A stretch of DNA of 64,000 bases, from the NCBI GenBank assembly GCA_964523705.1, contig CAZFYA010000001.1:3388-67387 (forward strand), written 5' to 3'. Positions 8,626-52,316 of this stretch are shown in pieces. This DNA is from an uncultured Gammaproteobacteria bacterium. Its GTDB lineage: Bacteria > Patescibacteriota > Microgenomatia > Levybacterales > UBA12049. Position 1 is the stretch's first letter. The number at the start of each line of letters is the position of its first letter. A program made the translations under genes and the position numbers. The notes under the pieces were generated by a model that did no database searches, was not told the origin of the DNA, and was given only the letters and a program-made list of their open reading frames with translations.

Positions 8626-10263
8626 TTATGTGAATTTTCTTAATTTTATACTAAATAATACTACTATTGCCAGAAAAGATATAACGGATATCAAATTTGA
8701 AACTTTTCTTAGCTTTGTATCTTCATAAACAACTCTTACGTTATAACTTCCTTTATCTAAGTGAAAAGTCATAATTCCTCTGTATGTCATATTTTGAAAC
8801 TCTACATCAATTGGCTTATTATCAGCCGTTATCTTCCATCCCGGAAAATAAATAGTATTTTCCATAAATAAAGTATTCGTTCTTGCATCAATTTTATACA
8901 CATGCTCTGTGGTAGTTCTTTTTAATTCTAAAATGTCTGCATTACCATCAATAACCTCTAGGTGTGCCTTCGGTCTTTTTTCCATAAATCTAACAGACCA
9001 AATAGGAGAACTCTCCCCTGTATCTGTTGTACTCTCAAAAACACTTGTATAAAAAGACTCCGGTTTTATTAAGTATCCTTTTGGCTTCATATAATTTAAG
9101 CTTAATAAAAAAATAATTATCAACAAGAGTGGTATTATTATTTTTCTTAATTTTCCCTTTAGCAAAGAAACACTTAAAGCGCCAAGAAGAGAGGTAGAAA
9201 ATACAGTAATGGCTAAAAGCCTCCACGGAAATTGAAAGTTTTGCAAAACCATAATATTTCTCCAAATAAAATCAGATTCTTTTAACATCATAAATATTGC
9301 CACAAGCGAATACACTAATCCTCCTAAGAATAAATAGTAATTATCTTTTCTTTTCTTAAAAGAATAAAAAACAATAATTAAAGAGAAAACAATCGCTAAC
9401 CAATGAATCAAACCAAGCTGAAGAGTAAATTCTCCGGATTGACCATAACTCCATGGTCCATAAATTAAAGATTTAAAATCAACAAAGCGATTTACATATG
9501 TCCCTGAAGTTAGAACATTTCTTAAGGTATATTTTCCCTCAAAAAATGCAGGAACCCAAAAAAACGAAGATAAAGTAAAACCTAGTATGATTGAAAATCC
9601 TAATTTTACAATATATGATTTTTTAAATTTTAATTTTGACCAAAGAAAAATTCCATAAAATATTATAAAGGGCAAAAAGATTAAACTTAGAGCATTATGA
9701 GATAAAACCAAAAAAGCAAAAGATATTCCTAGAAATATCGAGTAAATATAATTTTCTTTCTTAAATAATTTATAAGTAAAATATAAAACCAAAGGTAACC
9801 AAATAAATGCAAAATTTTCCCCTATTGCTCCCCTAACATAAAGATCGACAAATCTATAGGGGGCATAGACATAAAGAACAGCACCAAAAACAGAAGCATC
9901 TTTTTTTAAAAATTGAGACAACCAAAGATACATAAAAATTCCTGATAGAAAAAAACCAAGCGCAAAAATAATTTTCGTTGAATCAACAAAATTAAAACCT
10001 ATTAAATGAAAAAATGAAGCAAAATATGAAGGTAGCGGATATAAAAACATTAAAATAGGATGCCCATATCCCCAATTAAGATTTCCTGCCCAACGAGGAA
10101 TAATATTCCCCTCAGATAAACTCTGATAAAAGTTAGCTATTCTTGCTACATGATCTCTTCCATCATGAGTATATGGTAATCCTTGATTTAACAACGAAAT
10201 AAGCGGAATAAGTAAAAATAAGACTAATACAATAAGCAAAAATTTGTTTTTAAACTTAGTCAT
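8626..10263 (-). CDS. Polytopic membrane protein, YfhO-related GT-C-like (family C, HD...FPxRW motif)
   Basis: 545 aa. N-terminal YTHDGRDHVARIANFYQSL...IPRWAGNLNWGYGHPILMFLYPL; C-terminal YFPGWKITADNKPIDVEF beta-sandwich motif shared with YfhO proteins; paralog of 37322..38803 and 39331..40860. Confidence 0.5.
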   Translation of the reverse strand: MTKFKNKFLLIVLVLFLLIPLISLLNQGLPYTHDGRDHVARIANFYQSLSEGNIIPRWAGNLNWGYGHPILMFLYPLPSYFASFFHLIGFNFVDSTKIIFALGFFLSGIFMYLWLSQFLKKDASVFGAVLYVYAPYRFVDLYVRGAIGENFAFIWLPLVLYFTYKLFKKENYIYSIFLGISFAFLVLSHNALSLIFLPFIIFYGIFLWSKLKFKKSYIVKLGFSIILGFTLSSFFWVPAFFEGKYTLRNVLTSGTYVNRFVDFKSLIYGPWSYGQSGEFTLQLGLIHWLAIVFSLIIVFYSFKKRKDNYYLFLGGLVYSLVAIFMMLKESDFIWRNIMVLQNFQFPWRLLAITVFSTSLLGALSVSLLKGKLRKIIIPLLLIIIFLLSLNYMKPKGYLIKPESFYTSVFESTTDTGESSPIWSVRFMEKRPKAHLEVIDGNADILELKRTTTEHVYKIDARTNTLFMENTIYFPGWKITADNKPIDVEFQNMTYRGIMTFHLDKGSYNVRVVYEDTKLRKVSNLISVISFLAIVVLFSIKLRKFT

Positions 10264-10264
10264 C

Positions 10265-11554
10265 TTAATAAACCTCCATGCCTTTTTCTTTTCTCATTAA
10301 ATAATAATAGTAATACGACTCAGGTACCCCCACTTGAAACTCTATTCTTCTTTCGCTATCAACTGCTTCCCTTGCTTTTTTTTCTCTTTCAACAAAATTC
10401 CCTTCATCCTTATATGGCAAAAATTTCAACACTCCATAATATGAATAAACAAGTAAAAATAATATTACCAAAACTTTAACAAATTTATGTTTTATGCTCC
10501 ATATTAAATAAATAAAATAGGATAAAATTAAAAGAACAATAAACCTACTTATTATAAAATAATAATCGCTTATCTCCCCGCTGTAGACTGTAAAAATAAG
10601 CCAGGGAATAATAAACCAAAGAAAAACAAGATATAAAAATCTGATTTTTTTTAATTTTAATGACTGTTTATAAAACACTATAAAAAAAAGAGGTAATAGT
10701 AAAAACTTGTATGGCTTAACTTTATCTAAAACAAGATATGGATCGAATTGAATAAATGCATCGCCTACAATTTGAAACATTCTTTGCAAATGAAAACCAT
10801 GATAATAAGTTGATAGATAAGAAGAAGTTGTTAGATTGACTGAATTATTAGTGATTAAGTAAATAATATTTGGAATTAAAAATATTAAAAAACAAGGAAT
10901 TGAAATTAATATATATTTTAAAGTTTTTTTGTTCTTAGGGAAAAAAGGAAGAGATAATAAAATTATTATTGGAAAGAAAATTGCCGTAAAGTGAAGATTA
11001 AAAGCAATTCCTGTAAAAATAGCCAGGGGAATTAATTTTTTAATATCTTTTGTAATTACTTTGTACAGAAAATAAAAAATTAACATCGAAACTGCCGGAA
11101 GAAGTTGAACAGGCCATTGAATCCCATCAAAAATAATTATACTAAAACAAAAAGTATTTATTACAATCGCAATTATTGCCAACTCGTAAGAAAACAATTT
11201 TTTTGCAACATAAAAAATAGTAAAAAATGTAAAAACACTACTTATAAATGAAATAGTTAGCGAAGCAGCAGGATTTAAACCATAAATCCAATAAAAAAAT
11301 GCAACAAAATAATAATACAAAGGACCAATATATATTCCGCTATTTGCCTTAGCAACCATACCCAAAAGAGGCCAGTTGTTGTTAACTATTAAATTCTTTG
11401 CTGCCCAAGCATTGTCTACCTGATCATATCCAAAAGGGTTTTTTATTTCAGCTTGATATGTACGAAGAAAAATTTCAGATAAAAAAATTATCAACAATAA
11501 AACGTATATTTTATTTTTTTTAATAAATTTTAAATATGTTTTTATTTTTTTCAT
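10265..11554 (-). CDS. Polytopic membrane protein, GT-C-like (family B, short member)
   Basis: 429 aa. FGYDQVDNAWAAKNLIVNNNWPLLGMVAKANSGIYIGPLYYY aligns with the YDxxRD...PLIGP...GP...Y core of the family B members 11554..13062, 19654..21135 and 23451..24953. Confidence 0.45.
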   Translation of the reverse strand: MKKIKTYLKFIKKNKIYVLLLIIFLSEIFLRTYQAEIKNPFGYDQVDNAWAAKNLIVNNNWPLLGMVAKANSGIYIGPLYYYFVAFFYWIYGLNPAASLTISFISSVFTFFTIFYVAKKLFSYELAIIAIVINTFCFSIIIFDGIQWPVQLLPAVSMLIFYFLYKVITKDIKKLIPLAIFTGIAFNLHFTAIFFPIIILLSLPFFPKNKKTLKYILISIPCFLIFLIPNIIYLITNNSVNLTTSSYLSTYYHGFHLQRMFQIVGDAFIQFDPYLVLDKVKPYKFLLLPLFFIVFYKQSLKLKKIRFLYLVFLWFIIPWLIFTVYSGEISDYYFIISRFIVLLILSYFIYLIWSIKHKFVKVLVILFLLVYSYYGVLKFLPYKDEGNFVEREKKAREAVDSERRIEFQVGVPESYYYYYLMRKEKGMEVY

Positions 11555-13062
11555 TAGTTAACTAATCTTTTCTGAACTGTTACTCCACCCTTTAATAATT
11601 TCGATCCGATTATTTGTCCATCTTCTTCTCTTGCCTCAAGCCACCATTTGGGCCTATCGGGGTATCCCTCATCCGGCTCTATAATACAATACATTATATC
11701 CGCCTTTTTAACAGGAGTATATCCGTACTTTTTTTCTCCATACCATATAAAAAGATATTGATAAGTATTATCAAAAACCGGTGGTGTATAAAGTTCGTAT
11801 TTAAAATTCTCTCCTTTTACATCTTTATAGATATAATCAACTACTGCCAGCTGATTTCTATAAACTGCAGCATCGCCTTCAAATAATGGTCTTTGAAAAT
11901 TTTTAACAAATGAAAACGAAATAAAATTTACTACAAAGAGAATGATTAAGATTAATATGCTAACTAAATAATTTTTAGTATTTTTAGAAAATAAATATAA
12001 GCTTATTGATAATAAAAATATATAAACAACAGGTAGCCCAACTAGATAATGCGGCCATATTGCATAAGTAAAGATAAGTGTGCCGATAAAAAATACTACT
12101 AGAGTAATAATTAAAGTTAAAATAAAATCCTTAATAATTTTTTGTGCTTTTTTGTAAAACAATAAAAGCGTAACAGCAATTAATATCAACAATATTAATT
12201 CTAAATATCCTCTTGCTGGTAAAAACGTGTTTGAAAATGAATCAAAATACGTAAGAACTCTATTTTCTAAAAAATGGTATAAATCCAATTTATCCTCAAG
12301 TGTCTTAGCTGATAAAAATGAAAGAGCGGATTTTGTCATTAAAAAACTGTGTCTTAATTCAAAAATTATTCTTGGTGAAAAAATAAACAACCCTCCAAGC
12401 AAAAACAAAAGTATTTGTTTTATTTTTATGCTTTTTTTTAAAATAACCAAACATGAAAAAACTATACCTAATGAAAATAAAAATCCCCATAAAATCTCAA
12501 TATCAATATTTAAGGCAAGAAGAAGTCCTAAAATAAAAAAATACCTTAAATTTGCTTTACTTTTTAATACATATATTCTCTCTAATACCAAAAATGTTAC
12601 AAGAACTAATAACGGAGCAATATTTGGATTCCAAATTTGAGAAGATAATGAAATTAATGTTGATGAGATCGCTGTTAACAAAGCCATTGAAATACCTAAG
12701 AAACTATTTCCAATCTTTTTTCCTAAATAGAAAGAAAGAATAATTGATGCTATTCCAAATAAAGACATCGTAAAAGCAATTCCCTGCGGATCACCCACAA
12801 ATACCACAAAAAAAGGAAGTAATATAAAATACCACCATGGACCATAAAAAACCCCCTGAATCCCTGTTGTAGGCCCAATTAGAGTAAGTTTATGATTATA
12901 AGCAATGTCCCACAGAGAAAGTAAGTCTCTTCCAACGTCATAAGTAAAAGCAAAAGAATTATTTAACACCCCTTCAAGCCTTAAAACTGAACCAATTATT
13001 AAAATAACTAGGAAAACGAGATTTTCTTTTTTAGAAAATATTTTTTTAAAAAGCTTCATCAT
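11554..13062 (-). CDS. Polytopic membrane protein, GT-C-like (family B)
   Basis: 502 aa, more than 10 TM. FTYDVGRDLLSLWDIAYNHKLTLIGPTTGIQGVFYGPWWYF motif shared with three paralogs. Confidence 0.5.
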   Translation of the reverse strand: MMKLFKKIFSKKENLVFLVILIIGSVLRLEGVLNNSFAFTYDVGRDLLSLWDIAYNHKLTLIGPTTGIQGVFYGPWWYFILLPFFVVFVGDPQGIAFTMSLFGIASIILSFYLGKKIGNSFLGISMALLTAISSTLISLSSQIWNPNIAPLLVLVTFLVLERIYVLKSKANLRYFFILGLLLALNIDIEILWGFLFSLGIVFSCLVILKKSIKIKQILLFLLGGLFIFSPRIIFELRHSFLMTKSALSFLSAKTLEDKLDLYHFLENRVLTYFDSFSNTFLPARGYLELILLILIAVTLLLFYKKAQKIIKDFILTLIITLVVFFIGTLIFTYAIWPHYLVGLPVVYIFLLSISLYLFSKNTKNYLVSILILIILFVVNFISFSFVKNFQRPLFEGDAAVYRNQLAVVDYIYKDVKGENFKYELYTPPVFDNTYQYLFIWYGEKKYGYTPVKKADIMYCIIEPDEGYPDRPKWWLEAREEDGQIIGSKLLKGGVTVQKRLVN

Positions 13063-13065
13063 GTT

Positions 13066-14733
13066 TTAGGTTTTTGCAATTATCATTGCCGGAGTTCCGT
13101 CTAGATTATATATAGTTTTAAAAGCTGCTTGCTGAGGAATTTCATCAGGGTTTCCAATATACAATACGTTTTTTTCTAATGAATCATTCCCCCAGTTAAT
13201 TGGCCTAAATTCATATTTTCCATAACTTTGATGAGCCGCAAAACTACCTGAACTATTTTCCCCAACTTTTTGATATTCTTTTGGCGGGTATTTTAAATAG
13301 AAAGCAAAAAACATATAAGACTTATCCATTGGTTGCTTATCTGAAATTACCACTTTTTTAAAATTATCTTGAATTGGTTTTATTTCATTAATTGCTTTTT
13401 CGTATCCATATTGCCAATCCTTCGAATAATAATAATTCTGCTGTACAAAATACTGATTTAGGAAAAATGAAAAATTAAAAATAAAAATAGATACAAAGAT
13501 TATGTATAAAATATATTTTATTTTCTTAAACTTTTGTATTGCTAAAATTAAAGCAATTAATCCAATTGCTGAAAATATATGCCAAGTGGGCAAAAAATTT
13601 AACGTTCTTACCGCATGTGGAACTCCTGTTGTAATCGATGCTGGAATCGGTGCTATTAAAAACCAGGAAAAAATTAGACATCTTGTACGTTTTCCAAATC
13701 CGCCAGCTGACGGACCAAAAATTAAGGCATAAATTCCAATTAAGATAAGAGGAAATTCAAAAAGATATAAAAGCCCCATGCTTGGTGCATGATGACGAGA
13801 AATATCACCTGTTATAAAAAGCCAATTCAAATTAAAATGAGAAATATATCCTGAAACTATTGTTTTTGCATATACAATTCGTCTGTTATCCAATACAAAT
13901 CCTAATTTATTATTATCCTTTAAGTCTCTATCCAGTTTTTTAGTATTTGTTTTTAAAAGTTCTGTTTGGTAAGAAAAAATACTTGTTCCCTTAACTCTTA
14001 AAAGAGATGAGCTGTCGCTTAATATATACATTACCATTGGCATTAAAATTACAATTACCAGAATTAAAGAGGAAATTAAATATTTTTTACCTAAAAGTAG
14101 CAGCTGTTTTCTGTAAATTAAAATTAATGCAATAACAAGAAGCGGCGTAAAAACCCTGGTGCTCTGATATATATATGGAGATAATCCAATAAATATTGCT
14201 GATATTAGCAACAGCCATGGTTTTTTAAGTCCCTTTAGAAAAAATAAAGCAATTAAGATATTAAAAGAAGAACCAACATTTGCCTCGAAAGCAACTCTTG
14301 AGAATTGCATCGACCAAGGAGAAATTGCTAATAAAAAGGCGGATAATAATGCTAAATAATCCCTATATTTATAATCCTTAAATAACTCTCTGATTAAAAA
14401 GAAAACAGAAACAACCGAAATTACTCCAAAAATTGCCGATGGAAATCTTACTGCAAATACATTTAAACCAAAAACCAGAATTGATGGAATCGTAAGATAT
14501 GCATAAAGTGCAGGCTTATAATCATCAAAAGAGCGAAGAACAACCGGTAGGAATTTATTAAACTCATCCCTTCCTGTTTCAATAATTGAATAAGCATTAA
14601 AACCCAGGGCTACTTCATCCCAATCAGGAGAAGGTGGAACATTACCTAATTGCCACAACCTTAACACTAATGCAAAAAGTACAATTATTGAAAATAATAT
14701 CCAGGTAATTTTTTTAGTCATATGTATAAGCAA
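13066..14733 (-). CDS. PMT/ArnT-family GT-C glycosyltransferase (GT39/GT83-like, family A)
   Basis: 555 aa. First extracytoplasmic loop GNVPPSPDWDEVALGFNAYSI carries the DE motif; EFNKFLP...AVRFPSAIFGV...SPWSMQFSRVAFEAN is characteristic of the PMT_2 family. Confidence 0.75.
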   Translation of the reverse strand: MLIHMTKKITWILFSIIVLFALVLRLWQLGNVPPSPDWDEVALGFNAYSIIETGRDEFNKFLPVVLRSFDDYKPALYAYLTIPSILVFGLNVFAVRFPSAIFGVISVVSVFFLIRELFKDYKYRDYLALLSAFLLAISPWSMQFSRVAFEANVGSSFNILIALFFLKGLKKPWLLLISAIFIGLSPYIYQSTRVFTPLLVIALILIYRKQLLLLGKKYLISSLILVIVILMPMVMYILSDSSSLLRVKGTSIFSYQTELLKTNTKKLDRDLKDNNKLGFVLDNRRIVYAKTIVSGYISHFNLNWLFITGDISRHHAPSMGLLYLFEFPLILIGIYALIFGPSAGGFGKRTRCLIFSWFLIAPIPASITTGVPHAVRTLNFLPTWHIFSAIGLIALILAIQKFKKIKYILYIIFVSIFIFNFSFFLNQYFVQQNYYYSKDWQYGYEKAINEIKPIQDNFKKVVISDKQPMDKSYMFFAFYLKYPPKEYQKVGENSSGSFAAHQSYGKYEFRPINWGNDSLEKNVLYIGNPDEIPQQAAFKTIYNLDGTPAMIIAKT

Positions 14734-16366
14734 CTAAAGCTTCTTTTCCGTCTAAACGGTAAAAAGTTTTTAATATGTTTATATTTTCCGGTAATTTATA
14801 AGGCGTATTTACATATAAAACTTTATTCTCTTTACTTAATGAATAATCATAATCCTCTGGAAAAAGGTATTTACCAAAACCTAATATTTTTACAAATCCA
14901 AACGGATCTCTTTGAACTTTCATTGTTTTTCTAAATTCACCAGGCTCTGTTTTTGTGTAGAATAAATAATAAACATAAGGTCTTCCTAATTCATTGGTAA
15001 CTTGTACATAATCGTAATTTCCTTCAACCGACTTTACATACTCAATTGATTCCTTATATCCATATTGCCACTCGCTTGAGTATTCAAAAGAGTAATGATT
15101 AAAATAATTATGTAAAAAGTAAGAAACATTTAAAAACAAAAGAACAAATAAAATAACTATTACTGTATTTTTTATCCATTTTTGTCTGTATTTTTTAAGC
15201 CATAATAAAAAACAAACAAAACCATAAGCAGTCAATATTTGAAACATAGGAAGAGTCGTCTCAATCCTTAGGGCATGAGGTGTTTCCCTTGCAGTTGCAG
15301 CAGGAATTATACCAAGCAACAACCAGCTTGGAATAAGCCACCAATTATCCTCTTTTTTTCGTATTAAAAGAAATATTCCACCAATAAAAAATACGATGTC
15401 CCATATATACATTTGCCCGACATCTTGAATAGAAAACTTTGGATTTCCATCCCCTTTTATAAAAAGAAAATTTGGGTTTAAATTGTCAAAATAATGTCTA
15501 ATATATTCAAGAGAGTATAAAACCCTTCTGTTATTAATGACATTTGACCACAAAGCATTTCCATCATTTTGAATTTGCTGATTAGCTTTCTCAACTACAC
15601 TTATATCAGAGAAAATATTAACCTCTTTAAACCTTAAGCTTGCCTGTGGAGATAATAAAAAGGAAACAACAGGAGCAAGAATTAAAAAACCAAGAATAAT
15701 AGCAAAAATTGTTTGTTTTTTAATTGCTAATAGTTTTTTTCTAAAAGCATATAAAAGAAGCAATAATAAAAGCGGCGCTACTATTCTTGAAGTATTAAAC
15801 GTATATATTGATAAGGCAAATGAAAAGGCCGAAAGTAATAAATACCATTTCCTATCCTGTACGCCTGCTAAAAATGCCCAAACACCCAAAACTATAAAAA
15901 AGCTGGCAACGTTTGCCTCAAATGCTGCACGCGAAAGCATAATGTGCCATGGAGAAATAGCCAAAAATAATGCAGAAAATAAAGCGTATAGATTATTGTT
16001 TTTTGATTTAAAAAATATTCTTTTTACTAAAAAAAACGTCATAAATACCGTTAATACTCCAAAAAAAGCAGATGGGACTCTTACAGCAAACTCATTAAGC
16101 CCAAAAAGAAAAATTGGCAATACTGTTAAATATGCATAAATAGGAGGCTTAAAATCTCCAAATGACTCAAGATAGTCATAAGGTAAAAATCTTCCAAACT
16201 CGTCTTTTCCGTCAATTCCTATTGAGTAGGCATTATACCCCCAGGCTGCCTCATCCCAAGTTAAACTTGGTGGGTTTTGCCCTAAATTATAAAAACGTAG
16301 TGCAAACGCAAGAATAATTATTAAAACTATTAAAAAATTTTTGTTTAAAAACCTATACATCATCAA
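14714..16366 (-). CDS. PMT/ArnT-family GT-C glycosyltransferase (family A)
   Basis: 550 aa. NPPSLTWDEAAWGYNAYSI...AVRVPSAFFGV...SPWHIMLSRAAFEAN; tandem paralog of 13066..14733; 20-nt overlap with the downstream gene. Confidence 0.75.
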   Translation of the reverse strand: MMMYRFLNKNFLIVLIIILAFALRFYNLGQNPPSLTWDEAAWGYNAYSIGIDGKDEFGRFLPYDYLESFGDFKPPIYAYLTVLPIFLFGLNEFAVRVPSAFFGVLTVFMTFFLVKRIFFKSKNNNLYALFSALFLAISPWHIMLSRAAFEANVASFFIVLGVWAFLAGVQDRKWYLLLSAFSFALSIYTFNTSRIVAPLLLLLLLYAFRKKLLAIKKQTIFAIILGFLILAPVVSFLLSPQASLRFKEVNIFSDISVVEKANQQIQNDGNALWSNVINNRRVLYSLEYIRHYFDNLNPNFLFIKGDGNPKFSIQDVGQMYIWDIVFFIGGIFLLIRKKEDNWWLIPSWLLLGIIPAATARETPHALRIETTLPMFQILTAYGFVCFLLWLKKYRQKWIKNTVIVILFVLLFLNVSYFLHNYFNHYSFEYSSEWQYGYKESIEYVKSVEGNYDYVQVTNELGRPYVYYLFYTKTEPGEFRKTMKVQRDPFGFVKILGFGKYLFPEDYDYSLSKENKVLYVNTPYKLPENINILKTFYRLDGKEALVAYTYD

Positions 16367-18078
16367 TTGCTCAATCCTTTCTTATACTCTTTATTATATT
16401 TTAACAGCTCCGATAAGTTAACTGCCTTAAATAGAACATTACCCAATCTATCTTTTACAACAAAAACTGGCTTTACTTCCTTTGGAAAATCTACTGGATT
16501 AGAAATAATAAGAATTTTCTTTGTCGAAAGCTCTGAATTTTCATCAATTACTGGAGGATTTTGAACAAAATAAATATTTTCTATTTTATCTATTGATAGC
16601 CAACTATTTTCTTCTTTGCTATAAGAAACATTTTTTTTACCTTGATATTTTACCGGGTCATATTTATTAAAAAAGAGATAATATATATATTGCTTTGCAT
16701 CATTTAAGTGCCTTGTTATATAAATTCTCTCATAATCATCTTTTAATCCATGTACTTTACCCATTAAGTCTTTATATCCATATTGAGAAAAAATAGAATA
16801 ATTGTTCTTAAAATAAGTGTTATAAGTTATAAAAAGAGAGAAAACACTAAAAAACATAATTAAAGTAATTAATACAATTAACAACTGCTTAAGTCTCTTT
16901 CCTTTTAGAATATTAAAAAGATAATAAAGACCTAGTCCGTTTAAAAGAGCTAAAAACGGTATCATTATTGACGATCTTACATAATTCCCATCACTTGTAA
17001 GTGAATCCGGCACAGGAGACAGCAAAAACAAAATAACAAACGCATAGTTAATCTTCTTATACTTTTTGTCTTTCAACAAAAACAATAATCCCAGTATTAA
17101 AAGCGGCAAACAATAAAGATAGTCCAATCCTCTTTTTGGCAATATTGAAAATTGAGTATCAGTACCACTTATATATAAAAAATTTGTAGAGAAATGAGAT
17201 AAGTAATTTTTTACAAAAGTGCTTGTAAAAAGAAGTGGCTTATTATCAGCAATTTTACAAATAAATGGATCAATGGTATTTTGGCATTGACCTCTTTTGT
17301 CATTAAGTGTATTTATCAAACCCATGCTATTAATATTTGTGTTTAAGCCCACTTGTGAAAACCTAACCGTTGCAGCATTTTTTTGAAAAATAATTGGAGA
17401 TATTAAGATTATAAAAAATATTAACGGTTTTATTAAAGGCTTAAACCCATCTTCTCTTTTGTAATTAATAAATAAGATTACTGCTAAAACAAGAGGCGCA
17501 TAAAGAATATAAGCAGAATATGTATACATAGTAAGAGCTATAAAAAATGCTGATAAAAATAAATCTTTGCTAGTTCTTTTAAATACTCCAAAAAAAAGAG
17601 CAATAATTAGAAAAAATATTGCAATATTTGCTTCATGTGCAATTCTGTTTAAGCCTACGCTCCATGGCATAATTGCTAAAAATAACGAAGAGAAAATAGC
17701 AGCTTTTTTATCAACCAGCTTTCTTGTTAAAAAATACAGAGCAATAACAGCTAATACCCCTGCCAATGCTGATACAAACCTAACAGAAAATTCATTTAAA
17801 CCAAATAAAAATATTGGGATTAGCATTGAGTACCTATTTACAGGAGGTTGAAAATCACCAAAACCAATAAAATTATTTATTGGAAGAAAAGTTCCCCATT
17901 GATCTTTTCCTGTTAGAAGAATTGAATAAGCATCGTATCCTGCATTTGCCTCATCATTTAAAAAACCCGCAGGAATATCTCCTATTTGATAAAATCTTAA
18001 AAAAATTGCGATTAATATTACAAAAAATAAGATTAATCGGTCTTTTGAAAATAAATTCATTTTATATATATTTTCCAA
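16363..18078 (-). CDS. PMT/ArnT-family GT-C glycosyltransferase (family A)
   Basis: 571 aa. IPAGFLNDEANAGYDAYSI...SVRFVSALAGV...MPWSVGLNRIAHEAN. Confidence 0.7.
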   Translation of the reverse strand: MENIYKMNLFSKDRLILFFVILIAIFLRFYQIGDIPAGFLNDEANAGYDAYSILLTGKDQWGTFLPINNFIGFGDFQPPVNRYSMLIPIFLFGLNEFSVRFVSALAGVLAVIALYFLTRKLVDKKAAIFSSLFLAIMPWSVGLNRIAHEANIAIFFLIIALFFGVFKRTSKDLFLSAFFIALTMYTYSAYILYAPLVLAVILFINYKREDGFKPLIKPLIFFIILISPIIFQKNAATVRFSQVGLNTNINSMGLINTLNDKRGQCQNTIDPFICKIADNKPLLFTSTFVKNYLSHFSTNFLYISGTDTQFSILPKRGLDYLYCLPLLILGLLFLLKDKKYKKINYAFVILFLLSPVPDSLTSDGNYVRSSIMIPFLALLNGLGLYYLFNILKGKRLKQLLIVLITLIMFFSVFSLFITYNTYFKNNYSIFSQYGYKDLMGKVHGLKDDYERIYITRHLNDAKQYIYYLFFNKYDPVKYQGKKNVSYSKEENSWLSIDKIENIYFVQNPPVIDENSELSTKKILIISNPVDFPKEVKPVFVVKDRLGNVLFKAVNLSELLKYNKEYKKGLSN

Positions 18079-19670
18079 ATAGTCTCCGTATTCCCAAAAG
18101 TTCTAATTGTATTATCTGGATCACTTTTTTTATGACATTTTTCAGGGCTAATATATATTGAATTTTCTTGAATATAATCTCTTGGATCTCCCAATCCATC
18201 CATTAAGCAATTTCTTTCTAGAATAATGTTGTCAATTATTATCGGATTATTTCTAAACACGACCTGAATTTTATTGGGATCAATCTTGTTATAAAATGCA
18301 TAATGAAGTAATGTATTTTGTGTTCCGCCGGCAATAAAAATTTTTTTATCTTTATTTTTATTTACATAATCCACAAGGTCTTTTGTGCTTTTAGAAAAAT
18401 CCTTTACATGTGAATATGCAAAACGATAATGATATTCCACAAAGTAACCAAAAGCAAAATATGTATAAAGCGTAATCATAATTACCACAAAAACGACTTT
18501 TAGATATTTATTTTTAAAGAAATTGTAAACTGAAAAAATTCCTGCTCCAATAAGAATATATAAAAATGGGATCATCAATTCGGATCTGATTACATATGTA
18601 GGTGTATATGAACCTATTCCTGACGGTAGTGCAGATGATAGAAGCATAAATATTACAAAAACAAGCTCCCTTTTGCGCGATTTGTAAAGATAAAGTGTTC
18701 CTAAGACTAGAAAAAGAGCCTCAAAAAGATAAAGCTCTCCTCTGTCCCACATTGAAAAAATTGCACTAGGTTCTTGATTGATAAACAAAAACTGAGTTGA
18801 GAAAGCATAAAAATATTGATGATTAAAAACTCCAAACCAATAAGTTACTTTATTATTAAAAACAGTTTTAAGAATCTCCGGAGCATTAATATAAGTTCTT
18901 CTTTCCAGCTCTATAACTTCAGCGTCTTTGTAATTATTTGTAAAGAAAAAAGGTCCGCCGGCATACTGGGCTGCTTTTTGAGTCTTATCAAGATAAAAGA
19001 AAGACAAGAACGTAAAAACAGTAAAAAAAATAATTATAAACAATTGTTTTTTACTTAAATCTTTTAATTTATAAATTGTCAAAATTAGTATGAATGGCAG
19101 AAAAATTATCTTAGTAGCAGCATAACTATAGAAACCTAATAAAAAAAATATCATCGACAACAGGGTGATTAAAACAGTTTTTTTCCTCTGATTTACAAAA
19201 AGAAATATTCCCAAAAGATAAAAAAACATAGAAAATGCAGGATCGTATGCAACTCTAGATATCTGGATATGCCAACCTGAAACAGCCATAGCAAAAGAGG
19301 AAATAAGCGCAATTGTATAATTATTTGTAATTTTTTTTGTTATTAAAAATAATAATAAAACTGATAACACGCTTACCAGTGCATACGGCAATCTACTAGA
19401 AAAAACTGATAATTCAAGAATTGAAAAAAATAAACTCGAAATATATATAGAAACTGGGCCAAAGTTGACTGCTTCCATATTAAAGGTCAAAGGAATGTAA
19501 TGTCCATTAACATCCTTTAATGTGTGATAAAAAGAATATGCACTATAGCTTTCTCTAACCTCATCATCTGACAAGCTAATTGGTGCACCTCCTATGTTCC
19601 ACAATCTTAAAAATACTGCAATGAAAACAATTACCAATAGTAATAACTTCCAATTAATTATTTTTTTCAT
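18057..19670 (-). CDS. PMT/ArnT-family GT-C glycosyltransferase (divergent family A member)
   Basis: 537 aa. ISLSDDEVRESYSAYSF...SSRLPYALVSV...SGWHIQISRVAYD; same architecture but more diverged. Confidence 0.6.
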   Translation of the reverse strand: MKKIINWKLLLLVIVFIAVFLRLWNIGGAPISLSDDEVRESYSAYSFYHTLKDVNGHYIPLTFNMEAVNFGPVSIYISSLFFSILELSVFSSRLPYALVSVLSVLLLFLITKKITNNYTIALISSFAMAVSGWHIQISRVAYDPAFSMFFYLLGIFLFVNQRKKTVLITLLSMIFFLLGFYSYAATKIIFLPFILILTIYKLKDLSKKQLFIIIFFTVFTFLSFFYLDKTQKAAQYAGGPFFFTNNYKDAEVIELERRTYINAPEILKTVFNNKVTYWFGVFNHQYFYAFSTQFLFINQEPSAIFSMWDRGELYLFEALFLVLGTLYLYKSRKRELVFVIFMLLSSALPSGIGSYTPTYVIRSELMIPFLYILIGAGIFSVYNFFKNKYLKVVFVVIMITLYTYFAFGYFVEYHYRFAYSHVKDFSKSTKDLVDYVNKNKDKKIFIAGGTQNTLLHYAFYNKIDPNKIQVVFRNNPIIIDNIILERNCLMDGLGDPRDYIQENSIYISPEKCHKKSDPDNTIRTFGNTETIWKIYIK

Positions 19671-21135
19671 TTAAATACCATTCCTCTGTCGATTCGTATA
19701 CTGCACTTGGATTAATACTTACCCAATTTTCATTAATCAACGCACTAGTAGAAGCATTTGTTAAATCAAAAACCTCTATACCTCCTATGTTGCTAATCAA
19801 TTTAGGATATTTTCTGATAACCTTATCGTTTGAAGAGATAACCGCTAATCCAATTTTCTTACCGCTATCGTCTATCCTTTTTACCGTATCCAAAAATAAA
19901 ACTAAAGGCAGTCCTCTTTCAGAATATTGATATTCGTAAAGATAAACTGAAAATTTTTCATTAGGAAGCTTTTCTATTAGCTTATTTGTAAATAAATTTG
20001 CCTCTTTAGCTGTATTATTTGTCGCTGAAGTAATAACACTAATATTTATTCTCATTGTAAAAACAGTAATTATTAAAAGAAAAACCCAAAAAACAAATTT
20101 ATTTAACTGATTAAGCTTATAAAGAACAAAGCTTGAAAAAATTAATAAAAAAGAACTTAAAAATGCTGTATATACTCCAAATATTATTCCCTTATAATAC
20201 CTAAGCATCACAAAGATTAGTAAAAAAGAGATTATTAAAGAAAGCATTTCTTTCGAAATTTTTCTTTTTATTATTTCGTATAATGAAATCATTACTAATA
20301 AAGCAATTAATAAATAGCTAATAATTACATGTCCGCCAATTACTTCAGACCACGTTTTTGGCCAAAAAATTCCAACATATGTTAACCACCTGTTTGGAAC
20401 ATAAATCCTATTTTGGCCATAAAGATAATAATCAAGCATATTTCTAGATTCAAAAAAATTCGTCTTCAAATCAAAAATCAATAATGGAATAAACGGGATT
20501 AAAAAACCAAGAATTAAAAACACTAACTGTTTTAACTTTCTTTTACTAAACAAAAACCCTACTGGAATTAAAAACAGTAACCCTATCGCCTGAAAATGTA
20601 TATTAACTGCATTGGCTATAAAAAAACCAAGCAAAAATAAGTCAAATCCTTTTGAGTACTTAACCGATCTTATAAAAAAGTAAACAGAAATTATTGCAAA
20701 AAATCCAGCCATTGAAGGCGAAACTAAATTAGTAGAATGCATTATTTGTTGAGTTGATATTGCTGTTAAAAAAGCCATTATTAATCCAAATTTCTCATTA
20801 ATAATTTCTTTTCCAATTAAAAACATTATGTAAACGGCAAAAACGTAAAGAATCGTTTGCATTATCCATGGACCAATTAATAGATTTGGAGATAGAAAAA
20901 CAAAAAGTGAAATTATCCAATACCATTGAGGCCCATAAACAAATTGACCAGCTGAGCTAAATGGACCGATTAGGGGAATTAGATGATTATTCAAAGCATA
21001 TATAGAAACTATTAAATCACGAGCATGATCAGATGCTAATCCCCATCTATTCCAGTAATTAATAAACCTCAATACAGTAGCAAGTATTATAATGCAATAA
21101 AGTAATAATTTGTTTTTTTTTAGTATTTTTTTCAT
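19654..21135 (-). CDS. Polytopic membrane protein, GT-C-like (family B)
   Basis: 493 aa. LASDHARDLIVSIYALNNHLIPLIGPFSSAGQFVYGPQWYW; paralog of 11554..13062 and 23451..24953. Confidence 0.5.
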   Translation of the reverse strand: MKKILKKNKLLLYCIIILATVLRFINYWNRWGLASDHARDLIVSIYALNNHLIPLIGPFSSAGQFVYGPQWYWIISLFVFLSPNLLIGPWIMQTILYVFAVYIMFLIGKEIINEKFGLIMAFLTAISTQQIMHSTNLVSPSMAGFFAIISVYFFIRSVKYSKGFDLFLLGFFIANAVNIHFQAIGLLFLIPVGFLFSKRKLKQLVFLILGFLIPFIPLLIFDLKTNFFESRNMLDYYLYGQNRIYVPNRWLTYVGIFWPKTWSEVIGGHVIISYLLIALLVMISLYEIIKRKISKEMLSLIISFLLIFVMLRYYKGIIFGVYTAFLSSFLLIFSSFVLYKLNQLNKFVFWVFLLIITVFTMRINISVITSATNNTAKEANLFTNKLIEKLPNEKFSVYLYEYQYSERGLPLVLFLDTVKRIDDSGKKIGLAVISSNDKVIRKYPKLISNIGGIEVFDLTNASTSALINENWVSINPSAVYESTEEWYLNEKNN

Positions 21136-21731
21136 TTTTTCGCTCTAAACCACATATTCATTCTTAATTCAAAAAAACCACTGTTTATATTATCCTTTTT
21201 AAATCCAATATTTTGCAATAATGAATTTATTTTTACATTACTATGATTATGTTTATGATCTTCTGCTTCTTCATTACTGATTAAATAAATTCTTCCCAAG
21301 AAATGAATTAACCAATCTGACCATGGTGCAGGAGTTGTCATTATAAATAAACCATTTTTCTTAAGCACTCTTTTTATTTCCCTTAAAACAAAATCAAGCT
21401 TATCGTTATTAATATGTTCAAAAACAGCAAGCATTGTCACTACGTCAAAAAAATTATCTTTAAATGGAAGTCTTCTTTTTTCTACATCCATTTTTTTTAA
21501 AAAAAGCTTTTTATCTTTTAATTCCTTTAAGTTTGTATTAGGATCCACTCCATATTTTTCTTTAAAATTTGAATTTATTAAAAAATATGGATAAAACCCA
21601 CAACCGATATCTAAAATTCTATCTTTATTTGTTTTTTTAGAAAATAGCTTACTGGCTTTATTTACTCTTTGTTTTGCTAAAAAATTTTCCAATAAACCAC
21701 TACCACGAGTTACACTGTCTTTTTTAAACAT
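21132..21731 (-). CDS. Class I SAM-dependent methyltransferase
   Basis: Motif I ILDIGCGFYPY, post-I acidic residue, Methyltransf_11-like spacing; 199 aa. Confidence 0.75.
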   Translation of the reverse strand: MFKKDSVTRGSGLLENFLAKQRVNKASKLFSKKTNKDRILDIGCGFYPYFLINSNFKEKYGVDPNTNLKELKDKKLFLKKMDVEKRRLPFKDNFFDVVTMLAVFEHINNDKLDFVLREIKRVLKKNGLFIMTTPAPWSDWLIHFLGRIYLISNEEAEDHKHNHSNVKINSLLQNIGFKKDNINSGFFELRMNMWFRAKK

Positions 21732-21733
21732 AA

Positions 21734-23434
21734 TTATTTTATTGACAATAACTTAAAAGCAGTTGTGCTATCAGGTCTTTTTATTTCCGAAACTAGCAAT
21801 GCTTTATTTTCAGGAACCTCACAAGTACCTTCAACTACATAAAGTATATCTTTTTTTCCCACCAAAATGTTTTCCAATTTTCCTGTTGACTCATTTATTA
21901 ACTCCTCTTCTCTTAATGGACATTTCTCATCTGTAATTTCATAATTATCAAAAGACATACTTCCATATTTTGTACTTTTGCTATTCATAATAACATCTTG
22001 GATTAAAATAGGATCATATTTATTATAAAAAAGTAAAAATATGGTTGGAGCAAAATTCGCATCTGTTATTACAACCTTTTTATAATTTTTAGCATGTGTA
22101 TTTATTTCCTGAACTAATTCTTTATATCCCTCTTGTCTATACCAAGGCCTATGCGATGGTCCATGAATATAATATGAGTGTAAATAGGTTAAAAAACTAT
22201 AAAAAATAATAACTCCCATTGCGACAAAAATAATTTTTGTAATATACTGCCTTTTTATATTCTTTTTTAAAAAAAGAAAAAGCATAATAAATCCTAATCC
22301 CGAAAGAATAGATATTGCAGGAAAAATTGTTAACGTACGCTGAAGATTTGGTACATCATCTGTTGTTAAACCACTACCAATAGGTGCAATTAAAACCCAT
22401 CCAAGAATAAACCAGCCCGTTTTCTTATTAAACGAAAATAAATACCATAATCCCAAAATTAAAAGAGGTAGCTCAAATAGATACAACAAGCTACCACCGG
22501 GAACCCTATATCTATCCGGCAATCCTGCATCTGTAAATAAAAATTCAAAGCTGAAATGTTTAAAATAAGTCTTAGTAAATGCATCTGCGTAATTGGTTAT
22601 TTTATTATGAAAAAATCTTGATTCCAATGGCTTAACTCCCATTATTCCGTCTTCTCTTTGCTGTTCTGAAAGGACAAGACTTGTGTTTTGATGCTGAAAA
22701 ACAGATAAGGTTTTAATCCTATATGAAAGCGTTGGGGAAAAAAGCACTAATACCACCGGGATTATTATTAACAATACATAACCTAAAATTAAAACATAAA
22801 TTTTTAATCTATTAAATTTTCTAACATAAAACCCGTAAGTAAAAAGTAATAGTAAAAAAAGAGGCACAAAACTTCTTGCAGCTTGATAAGTATAAAGAGT
22901 AATAAAAAAAGATAAAAAACTAACTATTAACAAGTGCCATTTATTTTTCTCCAACCAATGAATAAAAAAATATGTTCCTAGAGAAATTAAAAAAACAACA
23001 ATTACGTTGTCTGTACAAACTCTAGAAAGATTGATATGCCATGGAGATATTGCTAAAAAAAATGATGTCAAAATCGCTAATTTATTTTTGTATTTATATT
23101 CCTTAAATAATTTTAAAACCAAAAAAAACACTAAAGGAATTGTTATAGACCCAAAAAAGGCAGATGCAAATCTTGCTGAAAACTCACTTAAACCAAATAT
23201 TGCTATAAATGGAATCGAAAAATACGTATATCCTGCAGGACTATACATAAAAGATTTAAGATTTAAGGGAAGTAAATTTCCGGTAATCTCCTTGCCTGTA
23301 TTAAGAATTGAATAACTATTGTAAGTTAAATATGCTTCATCAACATGAAAACCAGAAGGAATAACCCCGAGTTGATAAAAACGAAGAATTATAGCAAGAA
23401 TAAATATTAAAAATATTGGTAAATATTTTTTCAT
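21734..23434 (-). CDS. PMT/ArnT-family GT-C glycosyltransferase (family A)
   Basis: 566 aa. GVIPSGFHVDEAYLTYNSYSI...SARFASAFFGS...SPWHINLSRVCTDN. Confidence 0.7.
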   Translation of the reverse strand: MKKYLPIFLIFILAIILRFYQLGVIPSGFHVDEAYLTYNSYSILNTGKEITGNLLPLNLKSFMYSPAGYTYFSIPFIAIFGLSEFSARFASAFFGSITIPLVFFLVLKLFKEYKYKNKLAILTSFFLAISPWHINLSRVCTDNVIVVFLISLGTYFFIHWLEKNKWHLLIVSFLSFFITLYTYQAARSFVPLFLLLLFTYGFYVRKFNRLKIYVLILGYVLLIIIPVVLVLFSPTLSYRIKTLSVFQHQNTSLVLSEQQREDGIMGVKPLESRFFHNKITNYADAFTKTYFKHFSFEFLFTDAGLPDRYRVPGGSLLYLFELPLLILGLWYLFSFNKKTGWFILGWVLIAPIGSGLTTDDVPNLQRTLTIFPAISILSGLGFIMLFLFLKKNIKRQYITKIIFVAMGVIIFYSFLTYLHSYYIHGPSHRPWYRQEGYKELVQEINTHAKNYKKVVITDANFAPTIFLLFYNKYDPILIQDVIMNSKSTKYGSMSFDNYEITDEKCPLREEELINESTGKLENILVGKKDILYVVEGTCEVPENKALLVSEIKRPDSTTAFKLLSIK

Positions 23435-23450
23435 TTATAAAAATATATCT

Positions 23451-24953
23451 TTATTCTTCCGGATACCATTTCTCTATGGAATCATAAATTTCACTTGGAT
23501 TTACAAAATGCCATCCCTTATTCTTTAACTCATCATTTTTATACTCACTTATGTCAAATAAAAAATAATGTTTTCCAACAACACCAGTTATTACAGGTAA
23601 GTCATACTCTGAAAGCTGAGCACTATTGGTAGCAGTCGCAAACCCAACTTTAATTCCAGAATCATCTAGTAAATTATTTTTCATAAGAAATAAAACTGTA
23701 GGAACGCTTCTTGAAGTTGATTTATAATCATAATCATAAACAGCAAATTTTTTGTTTGGAAATTTTTTTCCTAAATCATTCATATAATCAGCTGCATATA
23801 TTGCAGTTGTATTTGTTGCATTTTTTATTTCTTCAATGTTTTTCATACTAGTAAATGTAATTATTGCTAATAATAAAATAATCATAAAAAATGGGTTTAT
23901 TTTTTTGATCTTCAATGTAATCCATGCCGTTAATATTAAAATCGCCGGATGAAGATAAACAAGAAAAGCTGAATAAACTTCTCCTTTAAAATAACGAAGA
24001 ATTACTACGTTAATTATAAAAAAAGAAAGTACGAATAAAATAATTTTAGATAATTTACGATAGATAACTGCATAAACGGCAATAATCGCCAAAAGAATTC
24101 CCAAAACATATCCAATTACAGGATACCCTCCTATAACAAGAGAAAATTCTCTTGGCCAATATATACCTAAATAAGTAAGCCACCTTTTTGGAAGAGCCAT
24201 CTCATTACCACCAGAAAGAAAAAATGAAATTAAATTACGACTTTGATAATGGTTACTAATAAAATCAAAAATTATTAATGGTATAAACGTAATAAAAAAA
24301 CCAATTAATAACAAAAATATTTTTTTTATTGAAAAACGACAAAAAAACGGAAGGATAATTAATACAAAGAGAAGACCAACTGCTTGAAAATGAATATTAA
24401 CTGCTAACCCCACAAAAAAAGCTGTAAGAAAGAAGTAAATATCATTATTAAATTTTATTGATTTTATAGCAAACAAAAAAACAAACATTGATACAAAACC
24501 AACAAAAGTTGAATAAGTAAGGTTTGTGGATTGTCCTATTTGTGCAGTAGATATCGCTGTTAACAATGCTAAAAGTAAACCAAGTTTATTATTATGAATA
24601 ATTTTTCCAATTTTATACATTACTAAAGGCATTAATGCAGAAACTCCAGTTTGAACTACCCATAACAAGAGTATATTTGTTGGTTGAAAAAAAGTAACAA
24701 ACATGTAAATCCAATACATATATGGTCCAAATACAAATGGACCAGAGGCTGAAAATGGTCCTATTAAGGGAATCTGATGAGTAAATATTGCATAATGAGC
24801 TACTATTGCGTCTCTCGCTTGATCATATGCCAATCCCCATCTGTTTTGATAATTTATAAATCTTAGAAAAACTGAAATTAACAAAATTATAGTTAGTCCT
24901 ATTTTAATTTCTTTATTTATAATCTTTTTTTTAAATTTTTTATAAAAACTCAT
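23451..24953 (-). CDS. Polytopic membrane protein, GT-C-like (family B)
   Basis: 500 aa. LAYDQARDAIVAHYAIFTHQIPLIGPFSASGPFVFGPYMYW; about 45-50% identity by eye to 19654..21135 in the conserved core. Confidence 0.5.
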   Translation of the reverse strand: MSFYKKFKKKIINKEIKIGLTIILLISVFLRFINYQNRWGLAYDQARDAIVAHYAIFTHQIPLIGPFSASGPFVFGPYMYWIYMFVTFFQPTNILLLWVVQTGVSALMPLVMYKIGKIIHNNKLGLLLALLTAISTAQIGQSTNLTYSTFVGFVSMFVFLFAIKSIKFNNDIYFFLTAFFVGLAVNIHFQAVGLLFVLIILPFFCRFSIKKIFLLLIGFFITFIPLIIFDFISNHYQSRNLISFFLSGGNEMALPKRWLTYLGIYWPREFSLVIGGYPVIGYVLGILLAIIAVYAVIYRKLSKIILFVLSFFIINVVILRYFKGEVYSAFLVYLHPAILILTAWITLKIKKINPFFMIILLLAIITFTSMKNIEEIKNATNTTAIYAADYMNDLGKKFPNKKFAVYDYDYKSTSRSVPTVLFLMKNNLLDDSGIKVGFATATNSAQLSEYDLPVITGVVGKHYFLFDISEYKNDELKNKGWHFVNPSEIYDSIEKWYPEE

Positions 24954-24971: not shown

Positions 24972-25688
24972 TTAATTTTTAAACCTATATTTCACAAGTG
25001 TCCATAAAGCTTTTGTTCCGTCTTTTATTGTATTTATCTTTTTCCCTTCATTATATCCCCTTGGGTTTGCTTTAATTGGAACTTCATGTATTTTATAGCC
25101 TTTTTTCAGTAGTTTTGCGGTAATTTCAGGCTCAAGTTCAAAACCTCTAGCATTTAACTTAATATTATTCATTGCTTTTTTAGGAAATAACTTATAACAG
25201 GTTTCCATATCTGTTATCCATTGTCCATAAAGAATACTTGTAATAAAACTTAAAGACCTGTTGCCTAAATAATGAATTAAAAACTGAAACGTTTTTTCTT
25301 CTCCTTTTAAATTAGGGGCTCTTTTAATTCTTGTTCCGTAAACTACTTTTGCCTCTTTTTCTTGAATTGGTTTTAATAAGTCTTTAATGTATTTGGGGTG
25401 ATACTCTAAATCCGCATCTTGAATTAAGACATATTCTCCACTTGCCTTACTTATTCCCGTTCTAACAGCTTTACCTTTTCCTGAGTTTTTTTTATGCTTT
25501 AGTAATTTAATTTCTTTGTTACTCTTAGCAAACTCATCTAATAAACTTAAGGTATTATCGCTTGATCCATCGTCAACGACAATAATTTCTTTTTTTACAT
25601 TTGGTATATTTTCTTTTTTAAGACGATTTAAAAGTTCAACAACCGTCTTTTCCTCGTTATATACGGGAACTATTATGGATAATTTCAT
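24972..25688 (-). CDS. GT2 polyprenyl-phosphate sugar synthase (Dpm1/GtrB-like), soluble type
   Basis: MKLSIIVPVYNEEKTV...VVDDGSSDNT...LIQDADLEYHP...ETCYKLF; 238 aa. Confidence 0.75.
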   Translation of the reverse strand: MKLSIIVPVYNEEKTVVELLNRLKKENIPNVKKEIIVVDDGSSDNTLSLLDEFAKSNKEIKLLKHKKNSGKGKAVRTGISKASGEYVLIQDADLEYHPKYIKDLLKPIQEKEAKVVYGTRIKRAPNLKGEEKTFQFLIHYLGNRSLSFITSILYGQWITDMETCYKLFPKKAMNNIKLNARGFELEPEITAKLLKKGYKIHEVPIKANPRGYNEGKKINTIKDGTKALWTLVKYRFKN

Positions 25689-29995: not shown

Positions 29996-30024
29996 GTTTC
30001 TATTTTAGCAAGTTTATAATGCTA

Positions 30025-30054
30025 TTGCATTTACAAGAAGAGTAATAATATAAT
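30025..30054 (+). promoter_or_regulatory. Sigma70-like promoter (TTGCAT-N18-TATAAT) feeding a near-leaderless transcript for the 30061 gene
   Basis: TATAAT at 30049-30054 lies 6 nt before the ATG at 30061; no SD possible. Confidence 0.5.
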
Positions 30055-30060
30055 TAAGAT

Positions 30061-39304: not shown

Positions 39305-39334
39305 ATTTTATGAAAAATTTAACCTAAAAGTCAA
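39305..39334 (-). promoter_or_regulatory. Sigma70-like promoter TTGACT-N18-TAAAAT for 38858..39295, near-leaderless; -35 embedded in the shared TCCCATAGTTGACTT element
   Basis: Minus strand reads AGTTGACTTTTAGGTTAAATTTTTCATAAAATATACTGATTATG. Confidence 0.5.
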
Positions 39335-52251: not shown

Positions 52252-52269
52252 AGAACAAGATATTAAAGG

Positions 52270-52298: not shown

Positions 52299-52316
52299 GC
52301 TGAAGATAATCCGAAG

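Follow-up and report, generated by a model that had tools for sequence, protein, structure and literature searches.

A stretch of 64,000 nucleotides (assembly GCA_964523705.1, contig CAZFYA010000001.1; hereafter the window), deposited as from an uncultured Gammaproteobacteria bacterium and placed by GTDB in the Patescibacteriota, carries four paralogous membrane-protein genes, named here P1 to P4, that share an acidic motif in the first loop. Their products are probably membrane-embedded glycosyltransferases with the GT-C(A) fold that form three subfamilies within the PMT_2 (PF13231)/ArnT-like (COG1807) enzymes and would use a lipid-linked sugar outside the cytoplasm. They are peripheral members of the PMT_2 superfamily and, although uncharacterised as a subfamily, belong to an enzyme class that is already known. 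They are detected by existing models and fit the known class and its pathway logic, and the new element is a subfamily-specific signature in the catalytic loop.

Relatedness, fold and conservation of the four proteins

The four open reading frames (ORFs; 429, 502, 493, and 500 aa for P1 to P4) were present on the minus strand where a preliminary description of the window had placed them, and the motif strings quoted there were found as given in all four genes when their coordinates were checked. The motif lies about 10 residues past the first hydrophobic helix in all four proteins. Only its leading Asp occurs in each of P1 to P4; P1 reads D-Q-V-D-N, with a second Asp at +3 and no Arg. The PL(I/L)GP segment said to follow the motif holds for P3 and P4, but reads PLLGM in P1 and TLIGP in P2. 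The public copy of P2 (P0103) has 501 aa: the ORF given here begins with 'MM', and the public version takes the second of these Met residues as its start. P1, P2, and P3 were all present on a single NCBI contig of 252,136 bp, but no public protein was identical to the 500-aa P4 ORF, for which a different start codon was probably chosen in the annotation.

In pairwise BLASTP, P3 and P4 were 42% identical (374–384 bits), and the other pairs scored 80 (P2–P3), 66 (P2–P4), 43 (P1–P4), and 34 bits (P1–P2). Profile alignments were built from 56 P3/P4 homologues (A2), the P2 family (A5), the P1 family (A6), and six paralogs of the window that carry the DE motif (A3; genes B, C, D, E, F, and 43222-44754; hereafter DE-type). 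Using hhalign, P2 aligned with the P3/P4 profile at a probability of 99.8% (E 2.5e-30, 342 columns) and P1 at 99.4% (E 7e-22, 362 columns), both with the motifs in register, and the P2 and P1 profiles aligned with each other at E 2.8e-13 over 406 columns. Against the DE-type profile, P2 and P1 reached only E 7e-11 and 1e-9 over 138–182 columns. Judged by these alignments, the four genes are homologous well beyond chance, and because the alignments among themselves were stronger than those with the DE-type profile, P1 to P4 form one group whose members are nearer to one another than to the DE-type genes. The single family that had been described thus holds as a set of homologues; it consists of three subfamilies (P1; P2; P3 and P4) and is not one tight family.

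The PMT_2 model matched P1 (33.3 bits) and P3 (29.9 bits) above its gathering cut-off of 26.1 bits and P4 (17.6 bits) below it; P2 by itself had no Pfam match. Of the P3/P4-family members, 50 of 56 matched at E ≤ 0.01. The model covers residues 77-228, so the motif falls outside it. No informative NCBIfam match was obtained for any of the four genes. Relatives are named 'glycosyltransferase family 39 protein' by NCBI or '4-amino-4-deoxy-L-arabinose transferase-like glycosyltransferase' by JGI; the family is thus already annotated. Among the papers searched for work on GT-C or GT39 enzymes in Patescibacteria or the candidate phyla radiation (CPR), none dealt with these proteins.

The AlphaFold2 models of P4 and P2 were confident, with a predicted local distance difference test (pLDDT) of 93.7 and 87.9 and a predicted template modelling score (pTM) of 0.92 and 0.88, respectively. 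Searched against the PDB with Foldseek at E ≤ 0.1, both models matched the GT-C fold clan exclusively. Nearly all of the matches were glycosyltransferases (including AglB, PglB, STT3, ArnT, ALG12/9/3, Pmt1/2/4, AftA/B/D, Emb, and DPY19), the two weakest P4 matches being the PIG-U subunit of glycosylphosphatidylinositol transamidase. The highest TM-scores were obtained for ArnT (0.57–0.60; 0.60 for P4 with 5ezm) and ALG9/ALG12 (0.55–0.59), and unrelated transporters were reached only at E > 0.1, with a TM-score of about 0.1. The link to known enzymes was drawn from this fold comparison and from profile alignments in which the DE-type paralogs and ArnT served as the bridge. The PMT_2 matches, the GT-C fold, and the profile alignments agreed in placing the four proteins in a glycosyltransferase family. 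The distinct GT-C clade that had been suggested stands only at the subfamily level; it is nested in PMT_2/COG1807, where machine annotation had already put it.

Transmembrane (TM) segments of P4 were assigned from the AlphaFold2 helices together with Lys/Arg counting; a Kyte–Doolittle scan under-called helices, and its parity was unreliable. P4 has 11 TM helices in this model, in agreement with the ten or more described previously, followed by a C-terminal α/β domain of about 125 aa (approximately residues 375-500). This domain occurs in P2 to P4 and is predicted to lie outside the cell. The N-terminal tail of P4 contains six Lys/Arg and no Asp/Glu, Lys and Arg make up 12 of the 33 residues of the inside loops and seven of the 119 of the short outside loops, and more Lys residues are found where helices end on the cytoplasmic side. 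The positive-inside rule and homology predict a cytoplasmic Lys-rich N-terminus and an extracytoplasmic loop 1, and the positive-inside count thus puts the loop on the side that had been supposed for it. TM1 ends in a conserved L-R, and the P4 motif forms the N-terminus of the first juxtamembrane helix in external loop 1. The outside face of the model carries the motif, H188/Q190, D230, R257/W258, R320, and the C-terminal domain; all conserved polar residues of P4 are on this predicted outside face.

A hidden Markov model search at E ≤ 1e-30 retrieved 999 clusters at 50% identity, and 102 P4 homologues were found. Every named relative in the databases searched belonged to Patescibacteria, mostly Levybacteria (Microgenomates). 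Conservation was counted on 142 representatives at 50% identity (143 aligned sequences including P4). D44 was Asp or Glu in all 139 ungapped representatives, and it was 100% conserved in all four subfamily alignments. The most frequent residues at position 45 were Gln (71 of 143), Asp (14), Ser (14), Ala (11), and Thr (8), with Glu not among the top five. R47 was Arg in 97 sequences and His in 28 (125 for both), and D48 was Asp in 119 (124 with Glu). H188 was kept in 141 of 143, W258 in 140, and R320 in 135, and R31, R38, P62, G65, F67, G71, F73, G76, W98, S135, Q190, P225, and D230 were also conserved. Among the P2 orthologues (n = 43), D42, R45, and D46 were invariant; among the P1 orthologues, D44, Q45, and V46 were invariant and D47 and N48 nearly so.

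Related loci were scanned with a 23-sequence alignment and two peptide patterns, which biases the taxonomic picture toward close relatives. The scan gave 26 loci from GTDB genomes, and those with informative titles were from Levybacteria or other Patescibacteria. About 11 of the 26 were filed under the generic title 'uncultured Gammaproteobacteria bacterium' (L001, L003, L005, L012, L016-L019, L021, and L023) or under a Bacteriovorax metagenome-assembled genome (MAG) title (L022). L001, L003, and L005 have the same Levybacteria-type cluster in the same order as the Levybacteria-titled records. For these MAGs, which would be Patescibacteria, the titles look wrongly assigned or like taxonomic placeholders.

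The loop motif and its counterparts in ArnT and PMT

The profile of P3/P4 homologues aligned with the DE-type profile at a probability of 99.2% (E 7.8e-20, 329 columns), with WGLAYDQARD over PSLTWDEAAW, so that D44 matches the Asp of DE and Q45 its Glu. The DE of the DE-type profile aligned with that of yeast Pmt4, albeit weakly (E 0.27), and the same profile matched ArnT (5ezm) at E 1.6e-5. An ArnT profile was made of two sequences, the E. coli and C. metallidurans enzymes, whose alignment shows the loop P-D-E-x-R-Y-A-E ... Y-F-E-K-P. It aligned with the P3/P4 profile at a probability of 89.7% (E 1.8e-6, 215 columns), with D-E-T-R-Y over D44-Q45-A46-R47-D48, and a comparison with a single ArnT sequence agreed with this register. 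The Lys of YFEKP fell over V74, and the segment aligned to YFEKP is P-F-V-F-G-P in P4. ArnT conserves RYA and YFEKP in its first periplasmic loop and needs both motifs for function, as it does Y43, K69, and R254 (PMC5377068). The DE motif is needed for the activity of protein O-mannosyltransferases (PMTs), according to Lommel et al. (2011) as cited in PMC7801869.

On these alignments, the motif is best described as a variant of the ArnT/PMT catalytic-loop motif that keeps the Asp and the +3 Arg and has the Glu, Tyr, and Lys changed. The likeness to the catalytic loop of GT-C enzymes noted in the preliminary description was borne out, as D44 aligns with the Asp of DE and of the ArnT PDE. Its further remark that the motif differs from the DE and DxD signatures was right in that the Glu is gone, but the motif is a variant of the ArnT D-E-x-R-Y rather than unrelated to it. 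The subfamily keeps an invariant loop-1 Asp despite losing the Glu of the acidic pair and the Lys of YFEKP, which helps to define the minimal catalytic core of GT-C(A) enzymes.

ArnT (GT83; PDB 5ezm/5f15) shares with the four proteins the GT-C(A) fold, with the top global TM-score, an N-in topology with a catalytic loop 1 in the periplasm and an extracytoplasmic domain at the C-terminus, the Asp and Arg(+3) of P-D-E-x-R-Y-A in register with Y-D-Q-A-R-D-A, and a glycosyltransferase family 2 (GT2) partner of the GtrB/ArnC type. It differs in having Glu where Gln, Val, or His is found here, Tyr of RYA in place of Asp, Lys of YFEKP in place of Val, Gln, or Thr, and 13 TM helices compared with about 11 in the P4 model; the sequence likeness is detectable profile-to-profile only. 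The PMTs (GT39) and the DE-type paralogs of the window share with P1 to P4 the superfamily, the Asp of DE, the L-R ending TM1, and a P-x-Y after loop 1. The P-type proteins lack the motif Glu, PF02366, and MIR, and have conserved R-D, PLxGPF, and H-x-Q signatures that are not found in the DE-type.

Proposed donor pathway and mechanism, and alternative readings

In known extracytoplasmic glycosylation, a GT2 enzyme makes a polyprenyl-phosphate-sugar, and a GT-C enzyme uses it outside the membrane (PMC11127046). Candidates for the first role adjoin the genes studied here. The best full-length PDB match of GT2b, which is encoded next to P4, was the dolichyl-phosphate-mannose synthase (DPMS) of P. 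furiosus (5mlz; E 3.5e-18, residues 1-234), followed by GtrB and ArnC, and its NCBIfam matches (AglJ, PpgS, and dolichyl-phosphate hexose transferase) were all under the curated cut-offs. GT2b was directly upstream of a P3/P4-type gene in at least 12 of the 26 related loci, with the recurring order YfhO – GT4 – YfhO – GT2c – GT2b – P3/P4-type – DE-type. A gene of the GT2a type was directly upstream of a P3-type gene in L018 and L020. Some relatives combine both enzymes in a single polypeptide of 730–760 aa: P0088 has a GT2b-like N-terminus joined to a GT-C with LAYDQTHD, and P0092 and P0440 have a GT2a-like N-terminus joined to a GT-C, P0092 carrying GDDGRD. In the Rosetta-stone sense, these fusions link the two types of enzyme. 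From the adjacency of a DPMS/GtrB-like GT2 to the GT-C gene in these loci, and from its fusion with the GT-C in several relatives, GT2b is suggested to make the lipid-linked donor, and the donor of P1 to P4 is suggested to be a polyprenyl-phosphate-sugar. A polyprenyl-phosphate-sugar-synthase-like GT2 adjacent or fused to a GT-C is likewise found in the three-component systems (GtrB/GtrA/GtrX, CsbB-YfhO, PpgS-Rv3779, and GT136).

From these components, we infer the following course of the reaction. Cytoplasmic GT2b (and GT2a) would load a monosaccharide onto polyprenyl phosphate, and the lipid-linked sugar would then be flipped across the membrane, for which two Wzx-like genes are present in the cluster. 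P1 to P4 would each pass the sugar, in an inverting reaction, to an acceptor outside the cytoplasm, which may be a cell-surface glycan or a protein. As in PMT and ArnT, the loop-1 Asp (D44 in P4) would be the base in catalysis, and the +3 Arg, the homologue of the Arg in the ArnT RYA, may compensate for the absent Lys of YFEKP at the donor phosphate. The conserved outward-facing H188-x-Q190, D230, R257-W258, and R320 may also take part. The homology, the fold, the place of the Asp, the positive-inside topology, and the synteny and fusion with GT2 are shown by the data; the catalytic part of the residues, the lipid-monophosphate donor, the sugar, and the acceptor belong to the proposed model.

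Several observations weigh against assigning all four proteins to active lipid-sugar transferases. PDB sequence searches with P4 and with the P3/P4, P2, and P1 profiles gave nothing meaningful. The alignments of the ArnT profile with the P2 and P1 profiles were not significant, so the ArnT register rests on the P3/P4 family. The second acidic residue is gone (Glu replaced by Gln, Val, or His in P1 to P4), P1 is without the R-D pair, and the position of the YFEKP Lys is Val in 46, Gln in 44, and Thr in 29 family members; the mechanism or the donor may differ, and some of the paralogs may have lost activity. On the side of the donor, GT2 adjacency is partly expected in any glycan cluster, and GT2b is without a TM segment. 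No match to a GtrA-type flippase was found in the cluster, the only flippase candidates being the Wzx-like genes at 4519-5838 and 35167-36621; in this, and in having 17 GT-C genes in the cluster instead of one, the system differs from the three-component systems.

The same changes could be explained if some or all of the four were GT-C-like polymerases or ligases (Wzy/EpsG/WaaL-like) or dead scaffold partners of the DE-type paralogs, which we consider very unlikely. Weak matches to EpsG (PF14897) were obtained for P1 (E 1.3e-4, under the cut-off), P3, and a few P1 relatives; neither the Glu of DE nor the Lys of KPP is kept; and the interleaving with DE-type paralogs in a conserved order is compatible with heteromers such as Pmt1–Pmt2 and EmbA–EmbB. 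A retained active site is nevertheless argued for because the loop-1 Asp is near-invariant and the outward-facing H188, Q190, D230, W258, and R320 are kept across about 1000 clusters. In addition, no Wzy/WaaL-type structure was among the Foldseek matches at E ≤ 0.1, and the fusion to a polyprenyl-phosphate-sugar-synthase-like GT2 fits a donor-consuming transferase.

Taken at its word, the NCBI label would make P1 to P4 true PMTs (CAZy GT39) that mannosylate Ser/Thr of secreted proteins from polyprenyl-phosphate-mannose. The PMT_2 model is described as dolichyl-phosphate-mannose-protein mannosyltransferase, the closest solved relative of GT2b is a dolichyl-phosphate-mannose synthase, and Pmt1/2/4 were among the Foldseek matches. 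However, neither PF02366 (PMT) nor an MIR domain was matched by any of the four at E ≤ 1 in Pfam, whereas PF02366 matched C, D, E, and F (four of the five DE-type paralogs in the span). The DE motif was replaced by D-Q, D-V, D-H, and D-Q in P1, P2, P3, and P4, respectively, and PMT structures aligned over about 260 columns with a TM-score of about 0.33, compared with the far higher value for ArnT. True GT39 membership was thus rejected, as its DE motif, PF02366, and MIR domain were looked for and not found in these proteins, and it is very unlikely; the generic nature of the PMT_2 model is most likely behind the label.

Orthology to ArnT (GT83), which transfers 4-amino-4-deoxy-L-arabinose (L-Ara4N) from undecaprenyl phosphate to lipid A, is extremely unlikely and was rejected after RYA, YFEKP, and the arn operon context were checked: although the JGI 'ArnT-like' label, the top global TM-score, the shared D-x-x-R register, and an ArnC-like GT2 and a DegT/ArnB-type aminotransferase (1966-3180) in the window speak for it, RYA is not kept (the Arg stays as R47, and the essential Tyr is Asp, giving R-D-A), YFEKP is not kept (F-V-F-G-P in P4, the essential Lys being gone), the profile match to the P2 and P1 families was not significant, the Pfam assignments of the cluster included no ArnA, ArnD, or ArnE/F family, there are at least four paralogs per genome, and Patescibacteria are generally held to be without an outer membrane and without lipid A, which the host presumably lacks as well. 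The automatic labels 'GT39' and 'ArnT' should both be read as 'PMT_2-superfamily GT-C', and the present assignment helps to correct them.

The surrounding glycan cluster

The four genes belong to a glycan-biosynthesis cluster spanning positions 186-46738 of the window, the G+C content of which is about 28–30%. The genes form an almost unbroken row on the minus strand (approximately 3177-46738), and between 3177 and 29995 they overlap or are separated by gaps of 43 bp at most. The cluster contains 17 GT-C-type genes (four P-type, six DE-type PMT_2/PMT, three PTPS_related, three YfhO, and one weak GT87), about 10 GT2 genes, two GT4 genes, two Wzx-like flippase genes, and genes for GalE, an NDP-sugar dehydratase, a nucleotidyltransferase, a DegT aminotransferase, and a dTDP-sugar isomerase. 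The features discussed are listed in Table 1.

Table 1. Positions of the P-type genes, their loop motifs, and neighbouring features in the window.
Feature	Position	Strand	Description
P1	10265-11554	minus	429-aa GT-C, third subfamily; without large C-terminal domain
P1 motif	11411-11428	minus	YDQVDN, then PLLGM, GPLYY
P2	11554-13062	minus	502-aa GT-C, second subfamily
P2 motif	12925-12942	minus	YDVGRD, then TLIGP, GPWWY
P3	19654-21135	minus	493-aa paralog of P4, same D-x-x-[RH]-D subfamily
P3 motif	21016-21033	minus	SDHARD, then PLIGP, GPQWY
P4	23451-24953	minus	500-aa PMT_2-like GT-C glycosyltransferase, D-x-x-[RH]-D subfamily
P4 motif	24810-24827	minus	Y43-D44-Q45-A46-R47-D48 (YDQARD), then PLIGP, GPYMY
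B, C, D, E	13066-19670	minus	four DE-motif PMT_2/PMT paralogs between P2 and P3 (Pfam; motifs WDEV, WDEA, NDEA, DDEV)
F	21734-23434	minus	the fifth PMT_2/PMT paralog with a DE motif, flanked by P4 and the methyltransferase gene (Pfam, motif)
Sixth DE-type paralog	43222-44754		DE-motif paralog
Methyltransferase	21132-21731	minus	199-aa S-adenosylmethionine-dependent methyltransferase, immediately upstream of P3, between F and P3 (Methyltransf_11, E 7e-16)
GT2a	7854-8624	minus	256-aa GT2, hydrophobic C-terminus (Pfam)
GT2b	24972-25688	minus	238-aa GT2, 18 bp upstream of P4; resembles DPMS/AglJ/PpgS/GtrB/ArnC
PTPS_related	8626-10263		GT-C paralog (PF10131; Pfam)
PTPS_related	37322-38803		GT-C paralog (PF10131; Pfam)
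PTPS_related	39331-40860		GT-C paralog (PF10131; Pfam)
YfhO	start 26637		Pfam
YfhO	start 30259		Pfam
YfhO	start 40850		Pfam
GT87	44800		weak match (Pfam)

The genomes of relatives are estimated at about 0.6–0.8 Mb, and about 45 kb of this tiny, Levybacteria-like CPR genome is given to one glycan cluster with 17 GT-C-type enzymes; the cluster is more striking than the four genes themselves. Lipid-sugar transferases that each probably add one sugar outside the membrane offer a testable model of how the surface is built in these mostly uncultured bacteria, for whose episymbiotic lifestyle the cell surface matters. A more far-reaching proposal, which we put forward only tentatively and regard as possible rather than likely, is that the D-x-x-[RH]-D/H-x-Q clade is a separate GT-C family at the CAZy level, with a changed way of binding the donor, the Arg and Asp of the motif standing in for the ArnT/PMT Glu and Lys. 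Acting with the other 13 GT-C-type genes, it would build a complex cell-surface glycopolymer wholly outside the membrane from polyprenyl-phosphate-monosaccharides, as a Patescibacteria counterpart of mycobacterial arabinogalactan/lipoarabinomannan assembly that takes up about 5% of a sub-megabase genome.

A homologue of the methyltransferase next to P3 adjoins a P3-type gene in L002 and lies in the same cluster in L009 and L025, and methylated sugars may occur in the product. The three PTPS_related proteins have acidic loop-1 motifs (THDGRDH, MHDNTQ, and TDDGNW) at the same distance past TM1 as the P-type motif; HDGRD resembles D-x-x-R-D, but its D-to-D spacing is 3. The PTPS_related families seem to be without a characterised member. 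An ORF between PTPS_related genes (38858-39295) was considered as a GtrA flippase and ruled out; it encodes a soluble, charged protein of 145 aa with no Pfam match.

The only sizeable gap in the row from 3177 to 46738 is one of 263 bp at 29996-30258, which may hold an internal promoter or a terminator splitting the row into two transcription units. Beyond the cluster, a predicted tRNA-Gln gene (CTG anticodon; 52316-52387, minus strand) lies inside the 5' end of a minus-strand ORF of 180 aa (51856-52398), which probably starts downstream of the tRNA or is spurious.

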